Origin: Patescibacteria group bacterium
GTDB taxonomy: Bacteria; Patescibacteriota; Microgenomatia; UBA12405
Reading direction: 5' to 3'
Length of the DNA stretch: 64,000 bases
Assembly: GCA_013387215.1 (NCBI GenBank)
Contig: WARW01000022.1
Coordinates: 169,897-233,896 of the forward strand
Made by a program: the position numbers and the translations under genes. A model generated the notes under the pieces. That model saw only the letters and a list, made by a program, of their open reading frames with translations, did no database searches and was not told where the DNA came from. This document shows, one piece after another, positions 2,918 to 63,938 of the stretch (the stretch's first letter is position 1; every line of letters begins with the position of its first letter).

Positions 2918-2933
2918 AAGTTTAGTTTAGCAA

Positions 2934-4418
2934 TTAACTGGTTAATTTAGAAATAGCGAGGTCTAGTTTATGGATAGTTTTTTCTTTACCAAGGGCTGGC
3001 AAACAATCGACAACTGGAGGTGTAAATTTAGACCCACAAATAGCAACTCGGAAAACCATAAAGTATTTTCCAACTTTATTTTCTTCATTCGACCAATTGT
3101 CTGATTTCAGCAATTCATCAATTTTTGCCTGAATATTGGAGGCTTTGAAATCGTCTATTTGCGACATTATGTCTTTGGTTTTTGAAATCATGTCGAGAAC
3201 CAAATCTTTTGACATTTCTTTGTCTTTGTACTCGAGAAGTAACGATTTATCGTAGTCCACATCTTCAAAAATAAATTTTGTTTGAGGTTGAAGATCTGAT
3301 AATTTAACAATTCTTTCTTTTAAAACCGGCAGTAAAATATTTATTTGCTCATCTGAAGCTTGAGGCAAAAACTTTTTAAACAAAACTTTTAATTCATCAT
3401 TGGATTTTTGACGGATATAATATCCGTTTAAATAGTCCAGTTTTTTACGATCAAATACTGGCGATTTTTTGTGGAGATGATCCAAACTAAAAGCTTGAAC
3501 AAATTCATCTAATGTAAAAAATTCACGATTGTCTCCCGGATTCCAACCTAAAAACATTAAAAAATTAAGCATGGCTTCTGGCAAATAACCTTCTTCTAGA
3601 AATGATCTGGCTGAAGTTGCGCCATGGCGTTTACTTAATTTTCCCTTACCGTCTGGATTTAATAATACCGTAAGATGGGCAATTTTAGGTGGTTCCCAGC
3701 CAAAATAGCGATAGAGTAAAAGATGTTTTGGAGTGGAAGTGAGCCATTCCTCACCTCGAAAGACATGAGATATTTCCATTAAATGATCGTCGACGACTGC
3801 AGCAAAATGATATGTAGGAATTCCATTTGATTTTATTAAAACCTGATCATCAATGTCATTAGTATTAAATTTTATTTTGCCGCGGATTACATCTTCGAAA
3901 ATAATAGTTTCATTTTTAGGAATGACCATACGGATGGTGTATGGTACTTTTGCATCAATATTTTTTTGAATTTCCTCGGGTGTTAAATGAAGACAATGTT
4001 GATCATAACGAGGAACTTGCTTGGCGGCTTTTTGAGTAGCACGAAGTTCATCAAGACGCTCTTGAGTACAAAAACAGCGATAAGCCAAACCTTTATCTAG
4101 TAATTCTTGAATATATTTTTGGTAAATTTCAAGACGTTGAGTCTGAATATATGGACCATAAGGCCCACCAATATCTGGACCTTCATCCCATTGCAGACCA
4201 TAGTCTTTTATAACTTGAAGGGTTCTTTCCATGGACCCAGGGACAAAACGTTTTTGATCAGTATCTTCGATTCTTATAATAAATTGGCCATTATTTTTTT
4301 TAGCGAGTGCATAATCATAAAGACAAGTTCTTAAGTGGCCAACATGATATTCCCCCGTTGGACTGGGAGCAATACGAGTTCTCACAATTTTGTTGTCAAT
4401 CATGGTTAATTTTATCAT
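2934..4418 (-). CDS. gltX: Glutamyl-tRNA synthetase
   Basis: HVGHLRT (HIGH motif) and KLSKR (KMSKS motif); class I catalytic core similarity. Confidence 0.9.
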   Translation of the reverse strand: MIKLTMIDNKIVRTRIAPSPTGEYHVGHLRTCLYDYALAKKNNGQFIIRIEDTDQKRFVPGSMERTLQVIKDYGLQWDEGPDIGGPYGPYIQTQRLEIYQKYIQELLDKGLAYRCFCTQERLDELRATQKAAKQVPRYDQHCLHLTPEEIQKNIDAKVPYTIRMVIPKNETIIFEDVIRGKIKFNTNDIDDQVLIKSNGIPTYHFAAVVDDHLMEISHVFRGEEWLTSTPKHLLLYRYFGWEPPKIAHLTVLLNPDGKGKLSKRHGATSARSFLEEGYLPEAMLNFLMFLGWNPGDNREFFTLDEFVQAFSLDHLHKKSPVFDRKKLDYLNGYYIRQKSNDELKVLFKKFLPQASDEQINILLPVLKERIVKLSDLQPQTKFIFEDVDYDKSLLLEYKDKEMSKDLVLDMISKTKDIMSQIDDFKASNIQAKIDELLKSDNWSNEENKVGKYFMVFRVAICGSKFTPPVVDCLPALGKEKTIHKLDLAISKLTS

Positions 4419-5544: not shown

Positions 5545-6465
5545 CTAATAATCACGCCAGGTGATATTTTGCTTTGCCCAATTTACTATCTCTTTTGTAT
5601 CCTGAAACCGATCATCGCTTTGAGCAACAACACTAATTAGTTTGTGCCCGTTTATATTGATTAAGCCAACAAAACAACCGCCTGCTTCTGGAGTCCAACC
5701 GGTTTTTAAACCTTCTATTTCCGGGATGACTCCCAACAGTTCATTGGTCGATTCAAGATTGTGTTGAATTTTATTATCAAGATCAGAAACTATGACTGAC
5801 TTATTTTTAACAATTTCAGTGATGGTGGGATTTTTTATGGCGATTCGAGAGAGTTGGGCCAGATCATATACTGTTGAATAATGATTTGGATCATGAAGAC
5901 CATCATAATTGGTGAAATGAGTGTCTTTGAGTCCATATTTTGACACCAAAAGATTCATTTGATCAACAAAACCGGTTATTCCACCTGGATAATGTTTAGC
6001 CAAATTATAGGCAGAATCATTGGCGGAATATACCAAAAGTGCAGTTACTAAAGATTTTACGGTCATTTTTTCGCCGGGCTGCAAATTCATGACTTGACCT
6101 TCAGTGAAAGCATCAGGAACCGTGATTACTTCATCCAGCGGATAAATATTAAGAGCAGTGATGGCAGTTGCCAGCTTAGTAGTTGAGGCTGGATAAATTT
6201 TATCGTGAGCTCTTTTAGAAACTAAAACAGTGTTTGTGGCACTGTCGATTAAAATATAACTACCAGCATTTGCCTGGGGAGGATTGGCAAGATGAATAAC
6301 CGGCACTTGCGGATGGTTAAATTGAGCCAGAGTGGTGTTTTGGGGAATGATTTTTACTTTTGGATAGATTGTCCACAAACCAGAAAACGGCAGCCAAAAT
6401 AAATTAAGAACTAATAATAAAAATATTATTATGAAACTAATTTTATTCGACTTTAGCAGATTCAT
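5545..6465 (-). CDS. dacA: D-alanyl-D-alanine carboxypeptidase (S11 family, PBP5-like)
   Basis: N-terminal TM; SxxK active-site motif ASTTK; overall PBP5/DacA-like architecture. Confidence 0.75.
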
Positions 6466-10134: not shown

Positions 10135-10357
10135 GACAATAGCTTTAATTTTACACTGTTTTTATTAAAGCTAGGCATATATAAAAATTATATAAAAAAA
10201 CTTGATTTTCAGGGAAAAAGTGATATTATAGGTTGCATTACGAGCGAAAGCTTGTAATAAATTATTATATCGGCTTTGCCGATACTGACGAGTTTAGGTT
10301 CAAATTAAGCTTTGAGCCAGAACAGAGCCAGTGGTACTTTAAAAATACGGATTACCC

Positions 10358-10411
10358 GAGAGCTTGGGCTCATTGTGGGCAGCGCGCTGCCTAGAATGAG
10401 CACAAGCGCTC
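10358..10411 (+). promoter_or_regulatory. Long imperfect hairpin leader (apical palindrome GGCAGCGCGCTGCC) at the predicted 5' end of the 10439 transcript
   Basis: About 17-bp stem GAGAGCTTGGGCTCATT/AATGAGCACAAGCGCTC directly downstream of TTTAAAAAT (-10-like), about 28 nt before the start codon; homologous element before the paralog at 11229. Confidence 0.4.
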
Positions 10412-10438
10412 AAAGTTATAAATTAGGAGGTAATAGGT

Positions 10439-10906
10439 ATGAAAAAATTATTTTCAAGATGGTTCTTGATCCTTATATTGGTGGCTATCTTGTCCGCTTT
10501 TGCTGTTTGCTACGGAGTATCCGCATCAAATGCAAAACATACAACAGACAAATTCACGGTAGAAAATATAAATGGTGAGGTCATCTTGTCTAATTTCGAC
10601 AAAGACATTGCCTCTTATGTTGGACACCAAAGCAGTTATACTGCTACCGGGACTCACGAGTCTACCAGTCTGACAATTAATGTTGGACCTGGCGAATACG
10701 GTATAGTTGGCGGATCAAAAGTATTTTATTTTGATGACTTCTACACTGTTGTCGGACCTGGAACTTATACGTTTCAAGTCACTGACGGCTTTGCAGAAGT
10801 TGTTAATAGTAAATACGCAGCCAAACAGTGGCAATACAGATTGTGGCAAACACAAAAAAATAAATGGTCACTGAAAGGAACCTACAATACACTTTTAAAG
10901 TGGTAA
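10439..10906 (+). CDS. Small secreted protein, paralog A (signal peptide; GPG.YT..TDGF..VV C-terminal block)
   Basis: RBS AGGAGG 8 nt upstream; signal peptide with AxA-like site; paralogous to 11229..11633. Confidence 0.6.
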   Translation: MKKLFSRWFLILILVAILSAFAVCYGVSASNAKHTTDKFTVENINGEVILSNFDKDIASYVGHQSSYTATGTHESTSLTINVGPGEYGIVGGSKVFYFDDFYTVVGPGTYTFQVTDGFAEVVNSKYAAKQWQYRLWQTQKNKWSLKGTYNTLLKW

Positions 10907-10972
10907 TCCGTAAGGGCAGAATTGTTAAATCTTAATAAACTTTATGTTTATTATTTTTTATACTTTTCTGTC

Positions 10973-11028
10973 CTTTGGTCTATTGGTAAACCAATACTGA
11001 TGAGTCCGTTTTGAGGACGAAACCGAAG
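10973..11028 (+). ncRNA. Hammerhead ribozyme, type III (copy 1)
   Basis: CUUUGG-U-C^ / stem I UAUUGG-UAAA-CCAAUA / CUGAUGA / stem II GUCC-GUUUUGA-GGAC / GAAA / CCGAAG; all 11 invariant core nucleotides present, cleavage site GUC at 10978-10980. Confidence 0.85.
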
Positions 11029-11143
11029 AGGTATAGTTTTTTGGGAAATTTGTGCTAAATTACATTAGTTGTAAACTAAAATGGTTATTAAAAATAGCTT
11101 TTAATAGTCATTAGCACTTTAAAAAAGGTTGAATTGTTGTGAA

Positions 11144-11201
11144 ATGAGCTTGAGCTTGTTGTGGACAGTATTTTTACTGTTTAGAATGAGCTCAAGCTCA
11201 A
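11144..11201 (+). promoter_or_regulatory. Long hairpin leader (apical palindrome ACAGTA-TTTT-TACTGT) at the 5' end of the 11229 transcript
   Basis: 13-bp perfect stem GAGCTTGAGCTT/AAGCTCAAGCTC just downstream of TTTAAAAAA; same architecture and basal-stem sequence as 10358-10411. Confidence 0.4.
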
Positions 11202-11228
11202 ATTCTAAGAAGAAAGAAGGTGAGTTAA

Positions 11229-11633
11229 ATGAAAGGAAGGCGTTTTTTGGCTGCATTTTTGACTGTTTTAATTGTTTTTGTTTGTGTTTCAATACCTGCG
11301 TTTGCACATACTTGCAAACATGTAGACGTGAATATTGACAATTACCAATCAAACGGAGTTTATCAATCAACAGGGGTGGGTGTGACAAAAACAATAACGT
11401 TCTACGTTTGCCCAAACCAAATTGGCGTGCTTGGAGCCAATAAATATGGCGGCTACACTGATGGAGTTTACAAAACTTTTGGACCTGGATGGTACACAGA
11501 GACACTGACAGATGGTTTTGTGAATGTTGTAGACAAATCCGATGCCTGGAAAGAATGGACATACAGACTTAAAATGGCACGGGACCATAAGTGGGCAGCT
11601 AATCATCTTTTCACCAATGCGTTACCTAAGTAG
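11229..11633 (+). CDS. Small secreted protein, paralog B
   Basis: RBS GAAGGTGAG; signal peptide ..SIPAFA; C-terminal block GPGWYTETLTDGFVNVVDKSDAWKEWTYRL aligns with paralog A. Confidence 0.6.
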   Translation: MKGRRFLAAFLTVLIVFVCVSIPAFAHTCKHVDVNIDNYQSNGVYQSTGVGVTKTITFYVCPNQIGVLGANKYGGYTDGVYKTFGPGWYTETLTDGFVNVVDKSDAWKEWTYRLKMARDHKWAANHLFTNALPK

Positions 11634-12148: not shown

Positions 12149-12167
12149 ATTTTCGTGTCTTTTTACA

Positions 12168-12194
12168 CCCTCCGATACTTTCGGAGGGTTTTTG
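12168..12194 (+). terminator. Intrinsic terminator after RRM gene
   Basis: CCCTCCGA-TACT-TTCGGAGGG followed by TTTTT. Confidence 0.7.
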
Positions 12195-12216
12195 GTTTAA
12201 AATACACTATAAAGAT

Positions 12217-13554
12217 ATGATGAAATTAATCATTCCAGAAAAAATTAAGAAAATAATCGACGTGTTTCATAAAGCAAACGCTGAGATTTATGTTGTTGGC
12301 GGAGCTGTCCGAGATTTGATGCTGAACCGAGAAGTAAAAGATTGGGATTTTACAACCAATTTAACTCCAGAAGAAATGAAAAAATTATTTCCAAAAAATA
12401 GTTTTTGCAATAATATTTTTGGAACTTTTAGTATAGTTGATAAAAGTGGAGAAATTTTTGAAGTAACAACATTTAGAACTGAACAGGGATATTCTGATAA
12501 AAGGCACCCTGATGAAGTTAAATGGGGAAAAAGTTTGGAAGAAGATTTGCAAAGACGCGATTTTACAATCAACGCCATGGCTTTGGATGTACAAAACGAG
12601 GAAATAAAGATCATCGATTTGTATAACGGCCAAGAAGATTTAAATAATAAATTAATCCGAACTGTTGGTAATCCAGATGAAAGATTCAGCGAAGATGCTT
12701 TAAGAATGATGAGAGCAATTAGGATTGCTTCACAAATTGGATTTTTGATTGAAGAAAAAACTTTTGAATCAATTCAAAAAAATGCTGGCTTAATTAATCA
12801 AATTGCCAACGAAAGAATTAGGGATGAATTATTCAAAATTCTGATGTCTTCAGTCCCCTCTCAAGGAATAATTCTTTTAAAAAATTCAGGACTTTTGAAG
12901 GAAATAATGCCTGAGTTATTGGAAGGCTATGAAATGAAACAAAAAGGCCATCATATTGATGATGTCTGGACTCATAATTTGAAAGCACTTGATAATTGTT
13001 TAAGCAATAATCCAATTACACGATTAGCTTGTCTTTTGCATGATGTTGGCAAGCCATCAACGGCTGTTGGTGAAGGTGAAGCCCGAACATTCCACAACCA
13101 TGAAATTGTCGGATCAAGAATTGCTGTTCAAATCGGAAAAAGATTAAGGTTGTCTAATAAAGAACTTGATCAATTATTCAAACTGGTGAGATGGCATATG
13201 TTTACTACTGAGGAAACGCAGACTGATAAAGCAGTCAGAAGATTTATTAGAAACGTAACTCCTGAATATATTGATGAAATGATTATTTTAAGAAGAGCTG
13301 ACAGAATGGGCAGCGGTGCCAAAGAAACCAGCTGGAGATGGGAGCTTTTTAAAGAAAGAATTGTTGAAGTGCAAAAACAACCTTTTTCAATTAAGGATCT
13401 GAAAGTAAACGGAAAAGACGTAATGGAAATTTTAAAAATTGAACCGAGCCGAAAAGTGGGCGAAGTTTTGGAATCTATTTTTAAAGAGGTTGAAGAAAAA
13501 CCAGAATTAAATGAAAGAGAAATATTATTAAAAAAAATTGAGGAGTACAAATAA
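12217..13554 (+). CDS. cca: CCA-adding tRNA nucleotidyltransferase with HD domain
   Basis: GGAVRD polymerase-beta motif, DWDF, RRDFTINA; C-terminal HD motif HHIDDVWTH...LHDVGK. Confidence 0.85.
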   Translation: MMKLIIPEKIKKIIDVFHKANAEIYVVGGAVRDLMLNREVKDWDFTTNLTPEEMKKLFPKNSFCNNIFGTFSIVDKSGEIFEVTTFRTEQGYSDKRHPDEVKWGKSLEEDLQRRDFTINAMALDVQNEEIKIIDLYNGQEDLNNKLIRTVGNPDERFSEDALRMMRAIRIASQIGFLIEEKTFESIQKNAGLINQIANERIRDELFKILMSSVPSQGIILLKNSGLLKEIMPELLEGYEMKQKGHHIDDVWTHNLKALDNCLSNNPITRLACLLHDVGKPSTAVGEGEARTFHNHEIVGSRIAVQIGKRLRLSNKELDQLFKLVRWHMFTTEETQTDKAVRRFIRNVTPEYIDEMIILRRADRMGSGAKETSWRWELFKERIVEVQKQPFSIKDLKVNGKDVMEILKIEPSRKVGEVLESIFKEVEEKPELNEREILLKKIEEYK

Positions 13555-19615: not shown

Positions 19616-19633
19616 GGTAAAATACACTATCCT

Positions 19634-19933
19634 AGAGAAGCTGAAGGGTTAACTCCGACGTAAAGCCGGAGAGGAAAGTCTGGACCACAAAAAGCAAGGA
19701 ACTTAAAAATATAGAGCAAGGCGTGAGCTTTGGGCAATGCTACAGAGACGAGTAGTCCCGCAAGGGATGAGATGAAACGAGCATCCTTCCTGTGGAAATC
19801 TCAAGTTGAGACGTTTGTATCTGGCTTCCCGAAGTAAATTCGGGATCAGGTTCGAAAGAATCTGATTTGAGAGTCTCAGGTGGAGAGAATAGATAGATGA
19901 CCCATAAACAGAATCCAGCTTAACAGTTTCTCT
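19634..19933 (+). ncRNA. rnpB: RNase P RNA (bacterial type A)
   Basis: P1 pairing AGAGAAGCUG/CAGUUUCUCU; P4 strands GAGGAAAGUCUGG and ACAGAAUCCAGCUUA match the universally conserved RNase P regions; TAAAAT -10 element 11 nt upstream. Confidence 0.8.
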
Positions 19934-19941
19934 GGGATATT

Positions 19942-20928
19942 TTATTTGATTGGCAGTTCTTTTTTAAAAAGAACTTTTATAATCACTTCAACGGTCATGT
20001 ATATCGGCACTGCTAAGATGGCACCAGGAACTCCTCCAAGTTTGGCACCAGTAAGTAATAACAAAATTGTTATTACTGGATTGATATCACAAGATTCTTT
20101 CATTACTTTGGGTGCAATAAAATTTCCTTCTAATTGTTGAATTAAAATACCAGCACCGAGAGTTAGTAAACCTATGGTTGGTGATACAGTAAAACCAATA
20201 ATTGATGAAAACACCACTGAAATTATAGAACCAATATTGGGTACTATTTCTAAAAGTCCTGTAATTATTGCTAAAGATACAGCATAGTTTAGTCCTAAAA
20301 TTAAATAAACAAAATAAGATAAAATACCCATAACAACCATTAATATTAATTCGGCATTGACCCAATTACCGAGTCTTATTTCAAGGTTATCAATTATTTT
20401 AGTTATAAGACCGCCGTTTTTTTCTCCAAAAAAGTCAATGCTATATTTGGCAAAATGTTTTCTTTCTAAGAGTAAATAAAATGTAATGATAAGAATAATT
20501 ATGGCTGAAAATAAATTTGAAACAAAAGATACTGCGATATTGGCTATTCCACCGGGAACAGGTTCAAGTATTTTGAGCTGAGAAGAAAAATCAGAGGCTT
20601 TTAGCCCGTAGATATTTATGTTTTTAACCAAATCGGGCAGAGTTTTTATTAAGCCGGTAGTTTGATCTACTAAAGGTGGAATTATGCCGGCAAAAGCAAA
20701 AAATAAGACGGATAAACCAAGCAGATAAATAATTAATATAGCCAAGGCCCTTGGTACTTTTAATTTTTGCAACCTATTTATAGTAGGATTTATGGCTTCC
20801 ATGAAAATAAAACAAACGAAAACCAAAATTATTATGCTTCGGATGTTCCACAATAAAGCCAAAGCAAGTAAAAACAAGACAGTAAAAACAATCGTTTTGG
20901 GCGATATTTCAATCCTTTTAGTTCTCAT
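19942..20928 (-). CDS. AI-2E family transporter (PerM/UPF0118)
   Basis: 8 TM architecture; conserved GGVPGAILAVP motif. Confidence 0.8.
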   Translation of the reverse strand: MRTKRIEISPKTIVFTVLFLLALALLWNIRSIIILVFVCFIFMEAINPTINRLQKLKVPRALAILIIYLLGLSVLFFAFAGIIPPLVDQTTGLIKTLPDLVKNINIYGLKASDFSSQLKILEPVPGGIANIAVSFVSNLFSAIIILIITFYLLLERKHFAKYSIDFFGEKNGGLITKIIDNLEIRLGNWVNAELILMVVMGILSYFVYLILGLNYAVSLAIITGLLEIVPNIGSIISVVFSSIIGFTVSPTIGLLTLGAGILIQQLEGNFIAPKVMKESCDINPVITILLLLTGAKLGGVPGAILAVPIYMTVEVIIKVLFKKELPIK

Positions 20929-20965: not shown

Positions 20966-21952
20966 TTATTGAATTTTGAGATCTCTTCCGAAAACGATTT
21001 TTATAACTACTTCGATAGTCATATAGACCGGAACGGCTAAAATGGCACCAACTATTCCACCAAGCTGAGCACCTACAACCAAAAGTAAAATTGTGATTAC
21101 TGGACTAATATTGCAAGTCTCTTTCATAATCTTGGGAATAATAAAGTTATTTAAAATCAAGTGAAGTACAGTGCAGCAAGCAATAACTAAAAGTGCAGAG
21201 GTCGGCGAAATCGTGAGACCAATAATGGCGGCAAAGATAACTGCAATAATGGCTCCGATGTTTGGAACTATTTCCAATATTCCGGCAATTATGGCCAAAG
21301 ATACAGCATATTTTAGACCAAGAATTAAATATATTAGATATGAAATAATACCAACAGATATCATGAGAATTAATTGCGAATTAACCCAATTACCTAAGCG
21401 GGCTTCAAGACCATCAATAATTTTTGAAATTTTATTGCCAGCATTGTCTCCAAAATAATTAGTGGCGTATTTATGGAAATGTTTTCTTTCCAAGATTAAA
21501 TAAAAAGTTATCATCATGACGATGATGGTATAAAAGATATTAGAAACAATTGAAACTGCAATATTAGCAATATCCCCAGGAAGCGGTTCAAGTATTTTAA
21601 ATTGTGATGATAAATCAATGGCCGACTTTCCAAAGAAATTAGTGTTTTGGATAATATCGGGAAGGGTTTTAACAAGTCCTGTTGTTTGTTCTACTAAAAC
21701 TGGAACAATTCCGGCAAAAGCAAAAAATAAAATTGCCAGAATAACTAAATAAATTATTGAGACAGATAAGAGCCTTGGGATTTTAATTTTTTCAAGACTA
21801 GTAACAGTAGGATTTATGGCTTCCATTAAAACGAAACAAACAAAAATTAAGACGATTATTCCACGAATACTCCATAATAAAGCTAAGGCTAAAAGAAATA
21901 GAACGGTAAAAACAATAGTTTTGGGCGATATTTCAATCTTTCTGGTTCTCAT
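20966..21952 (-). CDS. AI-2E family transporter (tandem paralog)
   Basis: Roughly 60 percent identical to the 19942 gene; same length (328 aa). Confidence 0.8.
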   Translation of the reverse strand: MRTRKIEISPKTIVFTVLFLLALALLWSIRGIIVLIFVCFVLMEAINPTVTSLEKIKIPRLLSVSIIYLVILAILFFAFAGIVPVLVEQTTGLVKTLPDIIQNTNFFGKSAIDLSSQFKILEPLPGDIANIAVSIVSNIFYTIIVMMITFYLILERKHFHKYATNYFGDNAGNKISKIIDGLEARLGNWVNSQLILMISVGIISYLIYLILGLKYAVSLAIIAGILEIVPNIGAIIAVIFAAIIGLTISPTSALLVIACCTVLHLILNNFIIPKIMKETCNISPVITILLLVVGAQLGGIVGAILAVPVYMTIEVVIKIVFGRDLKIQ

Positions 21953-55110: not shown

Positions 55111-56283
55111 TTACTTGATAATTTCTGTTATAGCACCTGCACCAACAGTCAAACCACCTTCACGAATAGCGAAGCGTTGACCAGGTTGCATAGCAACAGG
55201 TTTAATTAATTTAACTGTCACAGCGGCATTATCGCCTGGCATGACCATTTCCATACCTTCTGGTAAGGCAATGTCACCGGTTACATCAGTAGTTCTGATG
55301 AAGACTTGAGGTCTGTAACCAGAGAAGATTGGGGTGTGACGACCACCTTCTTCTTTCTTTAATAAAATAACTTCAGCTTTGAATTCAGTGTGAGGAGTGA
55401 TTGAACCTGGTTTAGATAAAACTTGTCCTCGTTCAATATCGTCTTTTTCAACTCCGCGGAGTAATAAACCGACGTTGTCTCCTGCTTGACCTTGATCGAG
55501 CATTTTGTGGAACATTTCAACACCAGTAACGATAGCTTTTCGAGTATCTCTTAAACCGACGATTTCAATTTCATCGTTGACTTTAACGACACCTTTTTCG
55601 ATTCTACCAGTAGCGACAGTACCTCTACCTTTAATAGAGAAAACGTCTTCAACAGGCATTAAGAAAGGTTTATCGAGTTCACGAACAGGTTCAGGAATGT
55701 AAGTGTCAAGAGCTTCCATTAATTTCTTAATAGATTCAACACCATCAGCTTCACCGTTGAGAGCTTTTAAAGCAGAACCACGAATAATTGGAGTTTCATC
55801 ACCTGGGAAGCCGTATTTAGTTAATAAATCACGGATTTCCATTTCGACGAGATCTAAGAATTCTGGATCTTCAACTAAGTCGACTTTGTTTAAGAAGACT
55901 ACGAGAGATGGAACGTTAACCTGTTTAGCCAAAAGAACGTGTTCTCTGGTTTGAGGCATTGGACCATCTGGTGCAGAAACGACGAGAATAGCACCATCCA
56001 TTTGAGCAGCACCGGTGATCATGTTTTTGACGTAATCAGCGTGTCCTGGACAATCGATGTGAGCATAGTGTCTTTTTTCTGTTTCGTATTCAATGTGAGA
56101 AATGGCAATAGTGACGATTTTAGAAGAATCACGGACAGTACCACCCTTAGCGATATCTGCATATGATTTTGCACTTCCTTGTACTTTAGAAATTGCTGCT
56201 GTTAAAGTTGTTTTACCATGATCGACGTGACCAATGGTACCGACGTTGACGTGTGGCTTAGTTCTTTGATAAGTATCTGCCAT
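55111..56283 (-). CDS. tuf: Elongation factor Tu
   Basis: [22 protein letters not shown] motifs. Confidence 0.95.
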
Positions 56284-56610
56284 TTTTTGTCTCCTTTTTT
56301 TTGATTTATTGTCTTTGGTAAGACGAAAGTTTCTAATTAATAATATTTAGAATAAAACGCTTTTAGATTGTATCAACTAAATAAAGCCATTGCAACATAC
56401 AAAATATATCAAAATGACTATATGTTAGTAGATATTTTGTCTTAATTCGTTTCTGAAATTATAACCCGTGCTACTTTAAATAAATAGGGATGACTTTGAA
56501 AAAATAATACAGAGTCGATGTGTATATATTTTTTATAAAAAAAATACCCGGCAGTAAAACAAGTTTGAAGCACAAAGGTGCAACAAACGGTTTTAGAACC
56601 GGGTTGACGG

Positions 56611-57018
56611 TTAAATACTCCAAAGGAGTCCTCGAGGTAATCTTTCAACTGATTCTGTTTGAAATAGTGCCCACTGCCCGATTTCATCTTTTTTATAGAT
56701 GTCTACATGATAATTACTATAACTGTCTAAATCAGCAGATGCACCACTGTGTCCACCCCATGCGTGATAACTTTTTTCAGAAATATAGACATTTATGCTG
56801 TCTCCACTTTCCGATTTAGAAAGACCAATAATTCTGTAGGATGTAACATGACGGCTGTCGTCTAGATAACATCCTTTAAGGTTATTAGCGATGGAAATGT
56901 TTAAAAACAAAAACATGGCATTTTGTTGACTACCTGTTGCGGCGACCAAGGCAGCAATAAGGCTACGTGCCTCTTTTTTGATTTTTCCAAACAATTCAGT
57001 TTTTCGTTTTTCGTCCAC
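56611..57018 (-). CDS. Hypothetical small protein (cassette gene 3 in the fusA-tuf insert)
   Basis: GTG start with GGGGAAAG RBS; 135 aa; U-rich terminator-like region downstream. Confidence 0.4.
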   Translation of the reverse strand: MDEKRKTELFGKIKKEARSLIAALVAATGSQQNAMFLFLNISIANNLKGCYLDDSRHVTSYRIIGLSKSESGDSINVYISEKSYHAWGGHSGASADLDSYSNYHVDIYKKDEIGQWALFQTESVERLPRGLLWSI

Positions 57019-57195
57019 TGATACTACCTACTTTCCCCTGTTTTTTTATTAATGACAGGAACCTGTTTTGGAACTTAAAACAAATTCCTACCATTAATAT
57101 ATTATTTAAAAGAGCTAGTAATAACTATTTTGTTATAGAAAATAAAACTGCAGGCATTATAAGATAGAAGGAACGTTAAGGCAATATTTTATTGC

Positions 57196-57244
57196 AAAAA
57201 AAAATACCCCAAACGTTTTTGTCAGCAAGCTGACCGTTTGAGGT
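57196..57244 (-). terminator. Complex intrinsic terminator (CCCCAAACG...CGUUUGGGG enclosing GUCAGC/GCUGAC, then U-tract); repeat copy 1
   Basis: Nested hairpin plus U7 on the minus strand directly after the 57266 gene stop; near-identical copy at 57822-57868. Confidence 0.7.
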
Positions 57245-57265
57245 ATAAGATGAAATTAGGAAATA

Positions 57266-57700
57266 TTAATAAGAAAGAATAAAGAAGTCGTAGAGCGGAG
57301 ACAAAATGTCTGAGTAGTGTCGTTTAAGAATTAGCTTGATTTTGTTTGACCAACAGATGGATCCAATGGTTATAAGATCAAGTTTGTGCTTATCAATTAT
57401 TTTAGTTTCCATTAAACCCGTAAATTTACCATTTTCAATATGAGTATCTGGATCATCTACTTCAAGATAAAGTCGATAAAAAAGATTTTGTATGCCAGCA
57501 CTATAGATTGAAAAATAATATTTACCGTCGACAAATTTTGCCTTGGTTCTAATAAAATAACTATTTTCATGTAAGTATGAAGTAGGAAGAGGTTGGTTTA
57601 AACCTTTAGCTGCACTTTTCTCAATTTCCGGAGGTATAAAGCCATTTATCAGCTCATACCAAATGTAAATGTCTTTTGTGTTTTTTTCCAATAAAATCAC
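57266..57700 (-). CDS. Hypothetical small protein, paralog 2 (IW.E...IDKHK family)
   Basis: GTG start; 144 aa; shares the IWYE and IDKHK blocks with the 57884 gene. Confidence 0.45.
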   Translation of the reverse strand: MILLEKNTKDIYIWYELINGFIPPEIEKSAAKGLNQPLPTSYLHENSYFIRTKAKFVDGKYYFSIYSAGIQNLFYRLYLEVDDPDTHIENGKFTGLMETKIIDKHKLDLITIGSICWSNKIKLILKRHYSDILSPLYDFFILSY

Positions 57701-57821
57701 TCTCTTTCTTTTAATTATCCTGATTTTAAAATGTGCTATTCAAAAAGAATGCGTGAGCTTGGCTCAATTCTTTCGAATGGGTTCGATTGTATCACAAGGT
57801 CTTTGATTTCCAAAATTTTGA

Positions 57822-57868
57822 CAAAAAATACCCCAAACGTTTTTGTCAGCAAGCTGACCGTTTGGGGT
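57822..57868 (-). terminator. Complex intrinsic terminator, repeat copy 2
   Basis: Identical to copy 1 except 2 substitutions. Confidence 0.7.
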
Positions 57869-57883
57869 GTAAGGACTAAATAA

Positions 57884-58300
57884 TTAAGATTGCAGATGAT
57901 ATGGCTTCAAATAATAGACATTTGTGTAGGGATAAAATCCTATTGGAGCATATTCATCATCTAAACTATAGACAGTACCATTCAGTTTAAATATGTCTTT
58001 TTTATAGAGCGGCTCTGCACAGATTTTGTGTTTATCAATTTCAAAGCGTTTGTTTGGCTGGTCGATTTCATACAATTCTTTAAAAAAACGAAATTGGATA
58101 TTATTGTAACCTTCTGTGTGAACTGTAATCTCAAGATTTTTTGACTCTTGTTTTGAAACTAGTTGTCTGACGAAGATACTGTGATCTTTTTCAAAAACCT
58201 GGTATACAGCAGTACATTGTCTCAATTCAAGTAAACTCTTTTTTAAATCTTCTGGTAAAGAGTTTTTGGGATATTCAACCCAAATATAAGTGGGATCCAT
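57884..58300 (-). CDS. Hypothetical small protein, paralog 1 (IW.E...IDKHK family)
   Basis: RBS AAGAGGAG plus ATG; 138 aa. Confidence 0.5.
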   Translation of the reverse strand: MDPTYIWVEYPKNSLPEDLKKSLLELRQCTAVYQVFEKDHSIFVRQLVSKQESKNLEITVHTEGYNNIQFRFFKELYEIDQPNKRFEIDKHKICAEPLYKKDIFKLNGTVYSLDDEYAPIGFYPYTNVYYLKPYHLQS

Positions 58301-58410
58301 TAAACCATCTCCTCTTTTATTATTTTTCCTAATTTTAAAATGAGCTATTCAAGAAAAATGCCGCATTCTTCCGAATTGGGCTGATTGTATCATAAGATCT
58401 GAAATTTTGG

Positions 58411-58441
58411 CAAAAAAAATACCCCCGAAGGATCGGGGGTA
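58411..58441 (-). terminator. Intrinsic terminator after fusA (ACCCCCGA-UCCU-UCGGGGGU plus U8)
   Basis: 8-bp GC-rich stem, U-tract on the minus strand, 20 nt after the fusA stop. Confidence 0.8.
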
Positions 58442-58462
58442 TAAAAAATTCAAAATTAATTT

Positions 58463-60574
58463 TTATTTTGCAGCGACACCAGTCTTGATGGTCAAAGCTT
58501 CTTGAACATCTCTTGGAACCGGATCATAGTGTGATGGTTCCATGTAGAATGAACCTCGACCTTGAGTCAAAGATCGGATAACTGTGGCGTAACCACGGAT
58601 AGCTTCCAAAGGAATGAAGGCGTTAATGGTGGTAAAGTTGCCTGATTCAGTTGTACCGTTGATTTGGCCACGGCGAGATGAAAGATCTCCGATAACAGTA
58701 CCCAAGAATTCAGATGGGGTGCTAACTTCGAACTTCATAATAGGTTCAAGTATTTGAGGTTTAGCTTTAGTAAATGCATCTTTAATTGCATATGCACCAG
58801 CTAGTTTGAATGCCATTTCAGAAGAATCGACTTCGTGGTAGGTACCGTCGTAAACAGTAACTTTAATATCGGTAGCTGGATAGCCAGCAATAATACCTTT
58901 AAGCAATGTTTCTCGGACACCTTTTTCAATAGCAGGAATGAAGTTGGCAGGAATTGCACCACCTTTAACAGCGTTGACAAATTCAACACCTTCTCCCCTA
59001 TTTTTAGGTTCGATTTTAATTTTACAATGACCGTATTGACCGTGACCGCCAGATTGATGAATATATTTACCTTCACCGTCTGCAGGAGCAGAAATAGCTT
59101 CTCGATAAGCAACTTGAGGAGCACCGGTTTTGACGCCAACTCCGAATTCTCTTTTTAAACGATCAACGATAATTTCCAAATAAAGTTCACCCATACCGGC
59201 GATAATGGTTTGGCCAGTTTCGTGATTGTAGGAAACTCTAAAGGTAGGATCTTCAATTGAAAGTCTGTTTAAAGCAGCACCCATTTTTTCTTGATCGTCA
59301 GAAGTGGCTGGTTCGATTGAAAGGGAAATAACTGGTTCAGAGAATTGAATTGGAGATAATGAAATTGGGTTGTTTGCATCGCAAAGAGTGTCACCAGTAG
59401 TAGATTCTTTTAAACCAATACAGGCAACGATTTCTCCAGCGAAACCTTCTTCAATACCTTCTCTTTTATCAGCATGCATCAATAGCAAACGTCCGATTCT
59501 TTCGCTCTTTTTCTTGGTGGTGTTGTAGACTTCAGTACCTGCTTTTAAGGTGCCTGAGTAAACACGAACATAAGAAAGAGTACCAACGTGGGCATCTGAT
59601 TGAACTTTAAAAAGAAGAGCAGAAAGAGGTTCAGTCTTTTCTGGTTTTCTGGTTAAAATGTCATTAGTTTCAGGATCATAACCTTCGACTGGAGGTAAAT
59701 CCAAAGGAGAAGGTAAATAATCAACGATACCATCGAGAATTGGATGGATACCTTTGTTTCTCCAAGCAGCACCGCAGTAAACTGGGAATAATTTTCGAGC
59801 AATAGTAGCTTTTCTTAAAGCTGCTTTTAATTCTGGAACAGAAATTTCTTCATCATTTAAGAATTTTTCCATTAAAACTTCGTCTTCACCAGCGATTTTT
59901 TCAATCATTTCTGCACGAGCTTTGAGAGCGGCATCTTTATATTCATCAGTGACATCTTTAGTGGTAAATTCCATACCTTCAACGTCCTTATCGTAGACAA
60001 TCATTTTGAGAGTCATAAGATCGACGACACCAACGTGGTCGTGTTCTTCACCAACAGGAATAACGACTGGAACTATTGGAGCTCGTAATTTTTCATTAAT
60101 ACTTTGAAGAGTACCTTTGAAAGAAGCACCAATTTTATCCATTTTATTGACGAAAGCAATTCGAGGAACACCATATTTGTCGGCTTGTCTCCAAACAGTT
60201 TCAGATTGAGCTTGAACACCAGCGTTTCCGTCGAAAATCATGATAGCACCGTCTAATACACGCAAAGATCGTTCTACTTCAGCAGTAAAATCGACGTGTC
60301 CTGGAGTATCGATAATATTTAAACGGTAATCTTTCCAATAAGTAGTAATACAGGCAGATTGAATAGTAATACCTCTTTCTTTTTCCTGAACCATGGAATC
60401 GGTAGTAGTTGAACCTTCGTCAACTGAACCAATTTTGTGAATCTTTCCAGTATAGAAGAGAATTCTTTCAGTAGTAGTAGTTTTTCCACCGTCAATGTGG
60501 GCAATAATACCGATGTTTCGGACCTTTTCCATAGGTACTTCTCGGTTTTTAGTAAGTTTGATTTGTTCGGCCAT
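58463..60574 (-). CDS. fusA: Elongation factor G
   Basis: Start trimmed to MAEQIKL (ATG); AHIDGGKTT, DTPGHVDF, NKMD motifs. Confidence 0.95.
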   Translation of the reverse strand: MAEQIKLTKNREVPMEKVRNIGIIAHIDGGKTTTTERILFYTGKIHKIGSVDEGSTTTDSMVQEKERGITIQSACITTYWKDYRLNIIDTPGHVDFTAEVERSLRVLDGAIMIFDGNAGVQAQSETVWRQADKYGVPRIAFVNKMDKIGASFKGTLQSINEKLRAPIVPVVIPVGEEHDHVGVVDLMTLKMIVYDKDVEGMEFTTKDVTDEYKDAALKARAEMIEKIAGEDEVLMEKFLNDEEISVPELKAALRKATIARKLFPVYCGAAWRNKGIHPILDGIVDYLPSPLDLPPVEGYDPETNDILTRKPEKTEPLSALLFKVQSDAHVGTLSYVRVYSGTLKAGTEVYNTTKKKSERIGRLLLMHADKREGIEEGFAGEIVACIGLKESTTGDTLCDANNPISLSPIQFSEPVISLSIEPATSDDQEKMGAALNRLSIEDPTFRVSYNHETGQTIIAGMGELYLEIIVDRLKREFGVGVKTGAPQVAYREAISAPADGEGKYIHQSGGHGQYGHCKIKIEPKNRGEGVEFVNAVKGGAIPANFIPAIEKGVRETLLKGIIAGYPATDIKVTVYDGTYHEVDSSEMAFKLAGAYAIKDAFTKAKPQILEPIMKFEVSTPSEFLGTVIGDLSSRRGQINGTTESGNFTTINAFIPLEAIRGYATVIRSLTQGRGSFYMEPSHYDPVPRDVQEALTIKTGVAAK

Positions 60575-60673
60575 AAAATTAATTTGTAAGTAAAAAATAA
60601 CTGTTACCTGTAAAGTCGGCAACAGTGAACGGTTTTATGATACCATGAGGCTTAGTTATAATAAAGAACTATA

Positions 60674-61993
60674 ATGAATAGTATGCAGAATACAGAAATT
60701 GCAATTATTGGCGGAGGTTTAACAGGTTTGACGGCTGCATACCGATTGTCAAAAACAGGTGCTAAAGTTACTGTTTTTGAGAAAAGCAGTAATTTGGGAG
60801 GACTGGCTGGCGGTTTTCAAATCAATGGAACCAGTCTTGAAAAAGCTTATCATCACATTTTTAGAACTGATAAAGAAATTATAAACTTAACAAAAGAGCT
60901 AAAAATCGATAAAAAATTGAAATGGCACGAAAGCTCGATTGGTCTTTATTACAATAAAAAATTATATCCATTTGTTACGCCAGTTGAACTTTTGAAATTT
61001 GATCAATTGGGTCTGGTTGATAAATTCAGATTAGGCTTGGTGGCAGTTTATTTGCAAAAGTCTAAAAATTATAAAGATTTGATAAATATTCCAGCTGCTG
61101 ATTGGATGGAAAAATGGTGCGGGAAAAGAGCTTATAAGGTTATTTGGGAACCACTATTGAAAGGCAAATTTCATAATTATTATAAAAAAGTTTCCATGGC
61201 CTGGCTTTGGGCAAGAATTAATACCCGGGGAAATTCAAAAGAAAAAGGCGAACAAACCGAAAAACTAGGATATTTTGATGGCGGGTTTGAAATAATTTCT
61301 AAAGCGTTGGAAAAAGAAATCAAAAAACATGGCGGCAAAATTATTTTAAATAGCAATATTGAAAAAATTAAGGAAGATCGGAATGGAAAAGTGAAAATTA
61401 AAATTGAGGGAAAAGAAATGAGTTTTGACAAGGTTATAGCTTCTATACCAAGCCATGTTTTAGGAAAATTAATTGATGCAAAAAAATATAAAAAATATAT
61501 CGAAAAATTAAACAGTATAAATTATTTAGGAGCAATCACGGTGGTGTTTTCGTCTTTCCAAAGCCTGAGCAAATATTACTGGCATAATATAAATGATATA
61601 AAATCCCCTTTCCTGGCATTTTTGCAGCACACAAATTTGGTGGATAAATCCAATTATAAAAATGAAGAAGTATATTATTTGGGAACTTACCTTCCACATG
61701 AACACAAATATTTTAAAGCCAGTGAAGAAGAAATTTATAAAGATTTTTTTGATTATCTTAAAAATATATTCCCTGATTTTGATAGAAATAAAATTACTTC
61801 AAAGTATGTTTTCAAGCTGGCTAATGCTCAACACGTGGTGGACACAAAATATGTGAATAAAATTCCTGATTATGAAACGCCAATAAAAAATTTATATTTG
61901 GCCAATTTTTCCCAAATATTTCCAGAAGACCGCGGCACGAATTTTGCAGTGAGAGAGGGAAACAAAATATCAAAAATAATACAAAATCCATAA
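60674..61993 (+). CDS. FAD-dependent oxidoreductase (amine oxidase/phytoene desaturase-like)
   Basis: N-terminal Rossmann IAIIGGGLTGLTAAYRL...VFEKSSNLGG. Confidence 0.7.
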   Translation: MNSMQNTEIAIIGGGLTGLTAAYRLSKTGAKVTVFEKSSNLGGLAGGFQINGTSLEKAYHHIFRTDKEIINLTKELKIDKKLKWHESSIGLYYNKKLYPFVTPVELLKFDQLGLVDKFRLGLVAVYLQKSKNYKDLINIPAADWMEKWCGKRAYKVIWEPLLKGKFHNYYKKVSMAWLWARINTRGNSKEKGEQTEKLGYFDGGFEIISKALEKEIKKHGGKIILNSNIEKIKEDRNGKVKIKIEGKEMSFDKVIASIPSHVLGKLIDAKKYKKYIEKLNSINYLGAITVVFSSFQSLSKYYWHNINDIKSPFLAFLQHTNLVDKSNYKNEEVYYLGTYLPHEHKYFKASEEEIYKDFFDYLKNIFPDFDRNKITSKYVFKLANAQHVVDTKYVNKIPDYETPIKNLYLANFSQIFPEDRGTNFAVREGNKISKIIQNP

Positions 61994-61996
61994 AAC

Positions 61997-62025
61997 AGAA
62001 AAAAGAGGAGAAAGAAACTCCTCTT
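61997..62025 (-). terminator. Terminator hairpin AGAGGAG-AAAGAAA-CTCCTCT with U-tract on the minus strand
   Basis: Follows the 62024 gene stop; overlaps the end of the convergent oxidoreductase gene. Confidence 0.6.
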
Positions 62026-62422
62026 ATCTAAGATAAAGTCGTGAAGTGCAAAGATAAAGAGAAAAGTTTCTGACATTGTGACCTAGATTAAAGAAGGCAT
62101 CACGGACTTCATAGCTAAAAAAATTCCAATCGGTTTGATCGAGCTTCTCAAAAATAGAAGAAAAGTAGGCCATTTCGTTGAAACTGTATCTTTTCCCTTT
62201 GTCAGATAGATAATTGTCATAAATAATTTGAAAAGCTTTATCATCTGAAGTCTTTTTAAGTTGGTATTTAGATATTGGGGTTATTTTTAGTACTTTTGCT
62301 TTTAATGATCGGTCGTTTTTTATGTCAACTTTGAGTCCTACCAGTTTGGCGAGTTTTTTTAAACAAGATTCTGTTCGCCAAGTAATTATTTTAGCTTGGA
62401 TGTTTTGAAAGAAAATAAACAC
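62024..62422 (-). CDS. Hypothetical small protein, family WR.ES..L.KLAK..GL (paralog A)
   Basis: Probable GTG start 8 nt after AGAGAGG; homologous to the 63254 and 62632 genes. Confidence 0.45.
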   Translation of the reverse strand: MFIFFQNIQAKIITWRTESCLKKLAKLVGLKVDIKNDRSLKAKVLKITPISKYQLKKTSDDKAFQIIYDNYLSDKGKRYSFNEMAYFSSIFEKLDQTDWNFFSYEVRDAFFNLGHNVRNFSLYLCTSRLYLR

Positions 62423-62631
62423 AATAAACACCTCTCTTTCTGTTTTATGGATTTTTAAAGTCCAAAGATAAAAATCTAAAGCAAAATTAGATTTATCTGA
62501 ATACGGGAAAATTATACACCTTAAACTTAAGCAAGGTTTTATTTGAAAAATGTAAATCCATAAAATATAAAAAGATGTTAAAGAGGAGAAAAAATTCCCC
62601 TCTTAAAAAGTATTATTGTTTTTTAGCTGTC

Positions 62632-63060
62632 TTATTCGTTTTTTGATGAAGATAATTTGATTTTGGCTGCATGTGCTTCGAACTGAGAAAGATCATCTTC
62701 TAATGATTTAGCCTTCCAATAGTCCTGTCTGTCGATAAAAAACCGATTAAGGTTATGGAAAAACAACATTTCTTCATAATAAGTCAAACCTTTATCTGCC
62801 CCGATTGTAAAAAGATTCACGCCATCTTCTTTGACAATAGGAACGTGGAATAAATTTCCTGCCTCAAAAAAATCAAAAATTTCTTGTCTAACTGTCTGTT
62901 CTTTGGGGGAACAATTACATTTGTCCATTTCAAGACCATTAACAATAATTCTTGTTAAACCACGCGATCTTTTAACAGATACTTTTACACCGACATCTCC
63001 CATTACAAATTGCAAGCAGCCTTCCATGCAAAACCGTAGCCACCATTTTTTTAGAGTCAT
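62632..63060 (-). CDS. Hypothetical small protein, same family (paralog B)
   Basis: RBS AAAGGGG plus ATG; 142 aa. Confidence 0.5.
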   Translation of the reverse strand: MTLKKWWLRFCMEGCLQFVMGDVGVKVSVKRSRGLTRIIVNGLEMDKCNCSPKEQTVRQEIFDFFEAGNLFHVPIVKEDGVNLFTIGADKGLTYYEEMLFFHNLNRFFIDRQDYWKAKSLEDDLSQFEAHAAKIKLSSSKNE

Positions 63061-63253
63061 ACGAACACCCCTTTCTATATTTTATGGATTTCAAGGTACT
63101 TCAGTATTCAGAAGGAAAAGCTAAGCTATATAGAATAACCAGAATACTGGCCGATTATAACATACGCAAGCTAATAAACTGCTTAGGATTGTTGGAAAAA
63201 AAAATGAAAATCCATAAAACTCAAAAGAACCAAGAGGAGACTTAAGCCCCCTC

Positions 63254-63652
63254 TTATTTAAAAAACAGTTTTGTAGAGCAACCAACATCTTCAAGATAAT
63301 CGATCCATTTTTTTAACTTTTCAAAATGCTTTTTGCGTTTATGAGAAAAGTTCATGTGATCAATATAATCTTCAAGAATCTTATATACTTCTTCAAAATA
63401 TTTCAGTTCGTTTTGCGATAAACCACAAGATAATTGGTTTTCGTATTCATTATAGAGTTCTTTACCCTTAGCAACAAAGTTTTTAGGCAATAAGTCGTTT
63501 GTATATGGAACTATGGTGATGGTTCTATTCCCAGGGATATACCTAGAACTAAAATTAATTTCTAAACCTAGAGTTTTAGCCAAATTAATAAAATTTGATT
63601 CGGCGCGCCATAAATAAAAATCTCTCTTCATTTGTAAAACATAATCAATCAT
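63254..63652 (-). CDS. Hypothetical small protein, same family (paralog C)
   Basis: RBS GAAGGAG plus ATG; WRAESNFINLAKTLGLEI aligns with paralog A WRTESCLKKLAKLVGLKV. Confidence 0.5.
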   Translation of the reverse strand: MIDYVLQMKRDFYLWRAESNFINLAKTLGLEINFSSRYIPGNRTITIVPYTNDLLPKNFVAKGKELYNEYENQLSCGLSQNELKYFEEVYKILEDYIDHMNFSHKRKKHFEKLKKWIDYLEDVGCSTKLFFK

Positions 63653-63938
63653 TTATTTTCTCCTTCTTTCCGTTTGGATAAATATCAAAGCAAAGGCTGA
63701 TTGGGCACGCTTCTATGTTGCAACGTGAAGTCCATTTTTGGAAACAATCAAATAAAGGTCTTATCCGATGTGTTTCGGAAAAAAGATGCATATGTTGGCA
63801 AATTATATGGTAGATGTCTATAAAATAGATTACCTCGTTGAAGTTAGAGTTTTCTTGATATTGTCTATTTATATAGTCCAACCAAATCTCTGAGTGAATT
63901 TTTTTGATTTTATCAGGAAGTATAAATTTGTTTTTCAA
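63645..63938 (-). CDS. Hypothetical His/Cys-rich small protein
   Basis: 97 aa; HIICQHMH...H...C...C..EAC cluster; 8-nt overlap with the downstream paralog C gene. Confidence 0.35.
   Translation of the reverse strand: MKNKFILPDKIKKIHSEIWLDYINRQYQENSNFNEVIYFIDIYHIICQHMHLFSETHRIRPLFDCFQKWTSRCNIEACPISLCFDIYPNGKKEKIND

Follow-up and report, generated by a model that had tools for sequence, protein, structure and literature searches.

An undescribed small-protein family with conserved flanking signals in a fusA-tuf gene-turnover hotspot of Shapirobacteria

Chromosomal hotspots of accessory genes between core genes, for example the "minimal mobile elements" of Neisseria, are known from comparative genomics. 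Other described systems with small genes in tandem are the orphan immunity-gene arrays against interbacterial toxins, such as the acquired interbacterial defence clusters, and the cassette arrays of integrons. Bacteria of the candidate phyla radiation (CPR) have very small genomes, and to our knowledge little is known about where their variable genes are located or how they turn over. Here, we analyzed a stretch of 64,000 nucleotides from a CPR bacterium (the 64-kb window; contig WARW01000022.1 of assembly GCA_013387215.1, positions 169,897 to 233,896), in which three small genes, labelled B, A and C in transcription order, stand between fusA, encoding elongation factor G (EF-G), and tuf, encoding elongation factor Tu (EF-Tu). 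Our reading, which we consider probable, is that B and A are old paralogs of an undescribed family that, together with C, occupy a gene-turnover hotspot, that they carry family-specific flanking signals, and that their terminators have been homogenised.

As in minimal mobile elements, a single core-gene pair brackets different cargo in different genomes, some sites are empty, mobility genes are mostly absent, and homologous recombination through the flanking genes offers a natural mechanism. The locus differs from them in its site, the fusA-tuf gap where the ribosomal-protein cluster of a CPR bacterium begins, in one cargo family that seems long-staying and brings its own conserved leader and terminator, and in the level of the comparison, which is that of species or genera (EF-G identities of 82-90%) and not of strains. 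Orphan immunity arrays share with it tandem diverged paralogs, small cytoplasmic proteins without catalytic motifs and a variable region, whereas here no immunity family was matched, no toxin gene lies nearby, and the ratio of nonsynonymous to synonymous substitution rates (dN/dS) is 0.13 in one gene pair. Integron cassette arrays also consist of small tandem genes in the same orientation, each with an imperfect 3' hairpin, and vary in content among genomes, but no integrase or attI adjoins the array described here, its genes have their own promoters, and its hairpin is tied to one gene family.

All named genes of the locus are on the minus strand. The gap between fusA (58463-60571) and tuf (55111-56283) is 2179 nt in the window and holds three open reading frames (ORFs): gene B (57884-58300, 138 aa), a B-type member of the family; gene A (57266-57700, 144 aa from a GTG), an A-type member; and gene C (56611-57018, 135 aa), which has no kinship with A or B. 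The mechanical fusA ORF covers 58463-60622 and reaches a TTG at 60622; translation probably begins at the ATG at 60571, to judge from the relatives, whose proteins begin with MAEQIKL. Gene A may start at a TTG at 57691, judging from the spacing to the ribosome-binding site. The array has a regular repeat unit with spacings of 598-624 nt, and its neighbours are fusA, tuf, ribosomal-protein genes and a FAD oxidoreductase gene. An earlier sequence-only reading had described three minus-strand genes of 135-144 aa, each with its own promoter region and terminator. This description holds in full: a promoter-like site and a strong terminator hairpin were found for each of B, A and C, and the array consists of three separate gene units.

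The closest EF-G sequences (87-90% identical) belong to metagenome-assembled genomes of Candidatus Shapirobacteria, which are CPR bacteria, and a scan of metagenome contigs added further relatives with EF-G identities of 82-89%. The order FAD oxidoreductase (on the divergent strand), fusA, variable stretch, tuf, rpsJ is kept by all relatives. We compared the interval between fusA and tuf in 12 aligned relatives and the window. None of the 12 encodes A, B or C; two are empty, ten carry different cargo, and further genomes carry the A/B family. Overall, cargo of 0.7 to 3.4 kb, mostly unrelated, was seen in at least 12 relatives. The empty sites, in L091 and L003, are 122 and 127 nt long and hold the tuf promoter only; the earlier statement that fusA and tuf are normally adjacent is thus true inside this clade. 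Single ORFs fill the interval in L083 (673 nt, 123 aa), L082 (809 nt, 172 aa), L002 (1086 nt, an uncertain ORF of 119 aa) and L092 (1310 nt, 319 aa), while L001 (1016 nt) has a hydrophobic, membrane-like protein of 158 aa and L084 (1091 nt) a DUF5677 protein on the opposite strand (10205-10975, E 8.5e-22). In L087 (1334 nt), the cargo at 2522-3087 is a YafQ/RelE-type toxin gene (Pfam E 1e-12) after a 97-aa ORF, a putative antitoxin without a family match. The longest intervals hold several genes: 145-aa and 100-aa ORFs in L088 (>1545 nt); a 91-aa member of a small family (10187-10462), a transposase-like protein (10492-11127) and a 229-aa ORF in L081 (2250 nt); and a 576-aa ORF, a truncated transposase-like fragment (12159-12491) and ORFs of 118 and 119 aa in L085 (3439 nt). 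The L081 transposase-like protein resembles REP-associated tyrosine transposases (NCBIfam E 3.9e-10, below the curated cut-off).

Similarity between genomes resumes about 15 nt upstream of the -35 box of the tuf promoter, and genomes that are adjacent in a neighbour-joining tree of EF-G differ in the content of the interval. Because content differs in almost every relative and empty sites exist, this clade has a gene-turnover hotspot between fusA and tuf, with the same flanks, different cargo and empty sites that mark hotspots of the minimal-mobile-element type. The comparison across relatives that the sequence-only reading had called for thus bore out the hotspot part of its cassette or hotspot proposal.

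A and B are distant paralogs (25% identical over 102 aa, pairwise E 1e-4), as had been proposed. A profile of A and B, searched with HMMER against 1.84 billion representative sequences, detected 11 further proteins of 135-165 aa with E values from 1e-9 to 8e-4. The family motifs are W-x-E, (L/I)P, S-x-F-x-R and (T)(A/G)GW-x-NL-x-YR-x-YLE. A and B match the family hidden Markov model (HMM) at E ~1e-39 to 1e-40, a confirmation by construction since both are rows of its own alignment. Word-index protein searches with A and with B returned the query itself only, an exact look-up of B in the contig index gave no match, and a search with the 13-member profile recovered four known members and none beyond. 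Nothing significant was found for A, B or C in Pfam, PADLOC, PHROGs or NCBIfam; type II toxin-antitoxin systems and known anti-phage defence were rejected as identities for the three genes on the same ground. The one PADLOC match of gene B, to PDC-M49B, is very weak (E 0.013). The family profile reached a best E of 0.11, not significant, against the sequences of the PDB. A full-text literature search gave no title or abstract on this fusA-tuf locus or on the A/B family.

The AlphaFold2 model of B, made with the family alignment, has a pLDDT of 89.6 and a pTM of 0.84 and consists of one helix and about ten strands. Foldseek searches with this model gave E values above 0.4 against the PDB and above 0.2 against BFVD; the N-terminal half weakly resembles ferredoxin-like folds, far below significance, which is no evidence of function. 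Judged by eye, A, B and C have no obvious signal peptide or membrane-length hydrophobic stretch, and none has catalytic motifs. To judge from these searches, A and B represent an undescribed family of ~140-aa proteins, predicted to be cytoplasmic; our guess, offered with low confidence, is that they belong to the accessory genome and act by binding and not as enzymes. Gene C is not a distant member of the family (hhalign probability 0.1). Its homologs in L171/L172 (50% identity over 76 aa) and L167 (30%, E 2e-13) come after family genes, and viral contigs have no relative of it; its single-sequence structure model is poor (pLDDT 47.7).

The A/B family lies directly downstream of fusA in the window and at least four other genomes, and in the window and three of these tuf is on the far side. 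L161/L162 (EF-G 88% identical to that of the window) and L163 (EF-G 85%) have a single member, P0012 and P0006, respectively, between fusA and tuf. In L169/L170 (EF-G 90%), fusA is followed by a remnant of the 91-aa family, a 160-aa A/B-family member, P0010 and tuf, and in L171/L172 the end of fusA is followed by P0011 and then a C homolog. Contigs L165 and L166 start with a hairpin that resembles the fusA terminator, after which each has two family genes, L164 has three family genes in a tight operon, and L173 has a B-type gene and two further genes. In L167, a B-type gene, a weak family member and a C homolog have unrelated neighbours and not fusA. The gene order of the window thus recurs, as B-type, family-like and C-type genes in L167 and as A-type then C in L171. 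In the EF-G tree, the family carriers (window, L161, L163 and L169) fall in one subclade, interleaved with genomes that are empty or have other cargo. The simplest reading of this distribution is that the A/B family has long resided at the fusA-tuf site in one subclade and has often been lost or replaced there, and the view of the array as a random insertion is not supported.

The promoter of gene B (58384-58413) has TTGCCA, an 18-nt spacer and the extended -10 box TG-TACAAT, with 10 of 12 consensus positions matched and the TG present; that of gene A (57786-57813) has TTGGAA, a 16-nt spacer and TG-TACAAT; and the promoter-like site of gene C (57156-57184) has TTGCCT, a 17-nt spacer and TATAAT, again with 10 of 12 matches. 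The tuf promoter (56367-56395; TTGCAA, 17-nt spacer, TG-TACAAT) is kept in all relatives and forms the right edge of the variable interval. A shared upstream motif, GATTGTATCA, had been singled out in the sequence-only reading. It is indeed present, but it is the reverse complement of the extended -10 box TGATACAAT, which also occurs in the tuf promoter (56366-56375). The accompanying estimate that the upstream regions of A and B are about 75% identical proved accurate, with 76% over 66 nt (57687-57752 versus 58296-58361) and 77% over 43 nt (57767-57809 versus 58365-58407); BLAST aligned the two regions at 70% over 152 nt.

The 5' leader of gene B (58301-58383, 71.5 bits against the leader covariance model R2) contains a short form of the family hairpin at ~58347-58376 with arms ATTCGGAAGAAT / ATTTTTCTTGAAT, the A/U-rich block CATTTTAAAATTAGGA and a GGAG ribosome-binding site. 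In the leader of gene A (57701-57785, 92.4 bits), the full family hairpin at ~57738-57778, AUUCGAAAGAAU-UGAGC-CAA-GCUCA-CGC-AUUCUUUUUGAAU, is followed by CACATTTTAAAATCAGGA and the ribosome-binding site. Across the family alignment the order is extended -10 box, 5'-end hairpin, CAC(A/T)TTTAAAATTAGGA block and ribosome-binding site. Like the 5' stem-loops that stabilise messenger RNAs (mRNAs), the hairpin is located at the predicted transcript 5' end; its arms are ATTC(R)AAAGAAT and ATTCTTT..GAAT, and the inner stem-loop between them is variable and is missing in gene B of the window. The proposed pairs form in 81% of cells for the leader and 88% for the terminator, against 25-57% in shifted-partner controls for both. 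In 254 kb, model R2 matched solely upstream of family genes, including one untrained copy in L169. The leader is under constraint, because in the close ortholog pair of L165 and L167 it is identical at 101 of 108 nt (93.5%) while synonymous sites are 58% identical.

The terminators of B (57822-57873) and A (57198-57249) are nested hairpins. The core of the former (57831-57867) reads CCCCAAACG-GUCAG-CUUG-CUGAC-AAAAA-CGUUUGGGG, followed by a U-run, and the core of the latter lies at 57207-57243. Both have the features of intrinsic terminators, with a G+C-rich hairpin that starts 15-20 nt past the stop codon and a run of 6-9 U. The nested hairpin with its U-tract and the near-identity of the two copies, both reported from the sequence alone, were reproduced: the predicted folds of the A and B hairpins have energies of -20.3 and -21.2 kcal/mol (z -5.0 and -3.7), and 57199-57249 matches 57823-57873 at 49 of 51 nt (96%). 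A search of the 64-kb window for the 37-nt core gave exactly two copies, with zero expected. In order, the conserved parts of the terminator alignment are CCCCAAAC(R)GTCAG, a loop, CTGAC, a 5-7 nt bulge, GTTTGGGG and the U-run; the L167 copy has one compensatory change in its outer stem. The covariance model of the terminator, R1, matched solely directly after family genes in 264 kb, and in a further 107 kb it found four untrained copies (L169-L172) and nothing else; other cargo of the hotspot has no nested hairpin. A chance likeness of ordinary terminators was excluded by this specificity of the model for family genes. Searched with the hairpin pattern, IMG/VR gave no true copy and a single chance match inside a phage tail gene, and an Rfam scan of the interval and related loci, leaders and terminators included, found no family at the gathering threshold.

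Ordinary intrinsic terminators share the G+C-rich hairpin and the U-run right past the stop codon. The family elements differ from these and from ordinary 5' stem-loops in that the sequence itself is kept across genomes and among paralogs that are 17-35% identical, and the terminators differ further in their nested stem, whose 3' side has kept a bulge of 5-7 nt in most copies. The proposal of modular units with conserved flanks therefore stands, since the same leader and terminator accompany members of only 17-35% identity in other genomes. Taken across these genomes, the comparisons establish the leader and the nested-hairpin terminator as predicted family-specific expression signals that are conserved across genomes.

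Two other terminators of the locus are of different types. That of fusA (58419-58442) is ATACCCCCGATCCTTCGGGGGTAT followed by a T-run, and its hairpin is absent in both empty-site relatives read, L003 and L091. Gene C ends in a long hairpin (56537-56604, -29.6 kcal/mol, z -6.7) with the stem base ACCCGG...CCGGGU and a U-run. The same stem base occurs after the third array gene in L167 (~4331-4388) and L173 (~1385-1450), where the hairpin interiors are unrelated and the third gene of L173 has no detectable kinship to C.

Clustering divides the family into a B-type group (window B, P0007, L165 gene 1, P0009 and P0013), an A-type group (window A, P0006, P0011, P0005, P0003, P0010 and L164 gene 3) and an A'-type group (P0012, P0004 and P0008). 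In the window, L164 and L165, a B-type gene stands ahead of an A-type or A'-type one, and the arrays of L167 and L173 open with a B-type gene; since this order is shared across genomes, the A/B duplication predates the split of these genomes. On these comparisons A and B are old paralogs, and their coding divergence is large for that reason and not through fast current divergence. The only close ortholog pair, gene 1 of L165 and of L167 (85% protein identity), has dN 0.08, dS 0.61 and dN/dS 0.13, rates that mark this one pair as under purifying selection.

Within the window, the terminator cores of A and B share 98% identity, whereas they are 72-85% identical to all copies in other genomes, also to copies that follow members of their own subfamilies. 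No comparable excess is seen for the leaders (A versus B 80%, A versus L165 81%). Near-identical terminators beside old paralogs indicate homogenisation within the genome, and we infer that gene conversion or unequal crossing-over keeps them alike. Gene A is bracketed by 51-nt direct repeats that are 96% identical; whole units could be gained or lost through such repeats, in agreement with the one-gene to three-gene arrays of other genomes.

In the mechanism that we propose, each array gene would form its own transcription unit, with a sigma-70-type promoter with an extended -10 box, a hairpin leader, an A/U-rich tract with the ribosome-binding site, the coding sequence and an intrinsic terminator. 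Transcripts would start just before the leader hairpin, which may affect mRNA stability or translation. Leader and nested terminator would travel with the family genes and be maintained by purifying selection, and exchange between repeated flanks within a genome would keep the terminators alike and would explain why arrays differ in make-up and vary from one gene to three. The turnover of cargo probably relies on homologous recombination, with the very conserved fusA and tuf genes as arms.

Several observations weigh against this account. Contigs are short: L164 and L173 come without flanking genes, and L165 and L166 are tied to fusA only by the hairpin that resembles its terminator. The array of L167 lies in a different neighbourhood, and some mobility of the array is possible. 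Selection was measured on a single ortholog pair. The leader hairpins are no more stable than shuffled sequence (z -0.4 to -1.2), and with eight sequences neither the leader nor the terminator hairpin shows significant covariation; it is chiefly the sequence of the signals that is conserved, and recognition by a protein would also fit. Neither experiment nor homology points to a biochemical function.

Other readings of the locus were considered as well. One, which we think unlikely, would have the leaders and terminators act as portable homology arms. The array would then be an integrase-free cassette array, in which homologous recombination within the hotspot duplicates, deletes and swaps paralogs and provides tiny CPR genomes with variable binding proteins, perhaps for immunity or defence. 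One further possibility is that the proteins of the A/B family recognise their own conserved leader or terminator RNA.

The sequence-only reading had favoured near-identical flanks around fast-evolving coding sequence. The corresponding explanation is a recent tandem duplication followed by rapid diversifying selection in an arms race of immunity or anti-defence genes, in which the flanks are alike because the duplication is young. In its favour are the regular unit of 598-624 nt, the terminators matching at 49 of 51 nt and the leaders at ~76%, the toxin-antitoxin pair among the other cargo of the same hotspot and the very weak match of gene B to PDC-M49B. We nevertheless hold this explanation to be quite improbable. 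A and B fall in different old subfamilies, each with closer relatives in other genomes, and the B-type gene comes first wherever both occur; the leader of A resembles that of L165 as closely as that of B. The only close ortholog pair is under purifying and not diversifying selection, and an immunity or anti-defence role found no support, since A, B and C match no known immunity, defence or anti-defence family.

The position itself might be functional, if the A/B proteins or the leader RNAs acted with EF-G, EF-Tu or the ribosome, for example as co-regulated RNA-binding or factor-binding proteins. The family does lie directly downstream of fusA in five distinct genomes, with tuf opposite in four, the window included in both counts. 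Sister genomes, however, hold unrelated cargo or nothing at this site, the array of L167 lies elsewhere, and the promoter and terminator of each gene insulate it from fusA and tuf. The fold matches, far below significance, lend no help, and a functional tie to the translation factors seems to us rather improbable.

An integron-like origin, with the nested 3' hairpin as an attC-like site at which a recombinase excises and inserts cassettes, is very unlikely. It would account for a hairpin that is conserved in sequence as well as structure and has an asymmetric bulge, for arrays whose composition varies among genomes, and for the array of L167 in a different neighbourhood. No recombinase gene, however, lies within ~4 kb, the direct neighbours being fusA, tuf and the FAD oxidoreductase gene, and each gene has its own promoter, unlike integron cassettes. 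The attC core consensus is RYYYAAC / GTTRRRY. Compared by eye with this consensus, the stem ends CCCAAAC / GTTTGGG have 1-2 mismatches per core, so the hairpin misses the core consensus, and unlike attC it carries a U-run directly past the stop codon, as an ordinary terminator does. The hairpin is also absent from other cargo of the hotspot and has no true copy in IMG/VR. It is hardly credible that a REP-associated tyrosine transposase mobilises the hairpins as REP-like repeats, or that they are another small mobile repeat lying by chance beside these genes: REP-transposase-like proteins do occur in the same hotspot in L081 and L085 and other small hairpin repeats recur in these loci, but the hairpin is present twice in 64 kb and solely after family genes in all 371 kb searched, and tblastn with the L081 protein found no homolog in the window.

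Other repeated elements and genes were observed at this hotspot. A small family of 79-91 aa, with the motifs FIRRIDQ and CPGTYS-x-FC-x-T, occurs in the hotspot of three genomes (L081 10187-10462, L166 1381-1620 and L169 ~5740-5985); the L169 copy, for which no start codon is evident, is perhaps a remnant. A different upstream module of ~200 nt precedes unrelated cargo genes in L081 (~11115-11311), L002 (~12257-12376) and, three times, L088 (~1747-1986, ~2492-2731 and ~2952-3041). It comprises a promoter, CTTGACTTT...CCTATAAT, a long hairpin, TTGATGAACGGAAA...TTTCCGTTCATCA, and then a ribosome-binding site, and has no Rfam match. A short hairpin repeat, AACTCCGATTTATCGGAGT, lies in intergenic parts of the hotspot in L002 (12974-12992), L088 (1752-1770), L166 (8-26) and L173 (~1512-1530), within a longer shared segment, TAAATAGGTCTAAATTTGAA...CAAATTTTGCCTATTTA.

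The classical str operon is divided in this clade. In L161 (1-7745; compare 60674-61993 of the window), rpsL and rpsG follow rpoC, and a LytR_C-domain gene, dTDP-rhamnose genes and a divergent FAD amine-oxidase-like gene stand between rpsL/rpsG and fusA. Four further small orphan genes form another minus-strand array in the window, at 62024-63938 (62024-62431, 62632-63060, 63254-63652 and 63645-63938); three of the four are paralogs. This array occupies the site of the dTDP-rhamnose genes in L002, L003, L161 and L169, and its proteins are encoded at none of the relative loci searched. Every intergenic region of this array has a terminator AAGAGG...CCTCTT, then TTTTATGGATTT, then AAATCCATAAAA directly before the next gene, so that conserved flanks accompany diverged coding sequence, as in the fusA-tuf array. 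Elsewhere in the window are an RNase P RNA on the plus strand (19633-19934), for which the best Rfam model is the archaeal RF00373 (101.7 bits versus a gathering score of 84), and two adjacent paralogs of 328 aa on the minus strand (19942-20928 and 20966-21952) that are 65.5% identical.

In one clade of Shapirobacteria, genes have repeatedly been gained and lost between fusA and tuf, which are among the most conserved genes of bacteria. One tenant of this hotspot is an undescribed family, for which the predicted structure is confident and has no match among solved folds. The family signals have persisted through deep divergence; one may be a new cis-regulatory leader, the other a terminator that is recognised by sequence. 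The result is descriptive, and the locus provides a concrete place for studying gene flux and small-protein function in uncultured episymbionts.

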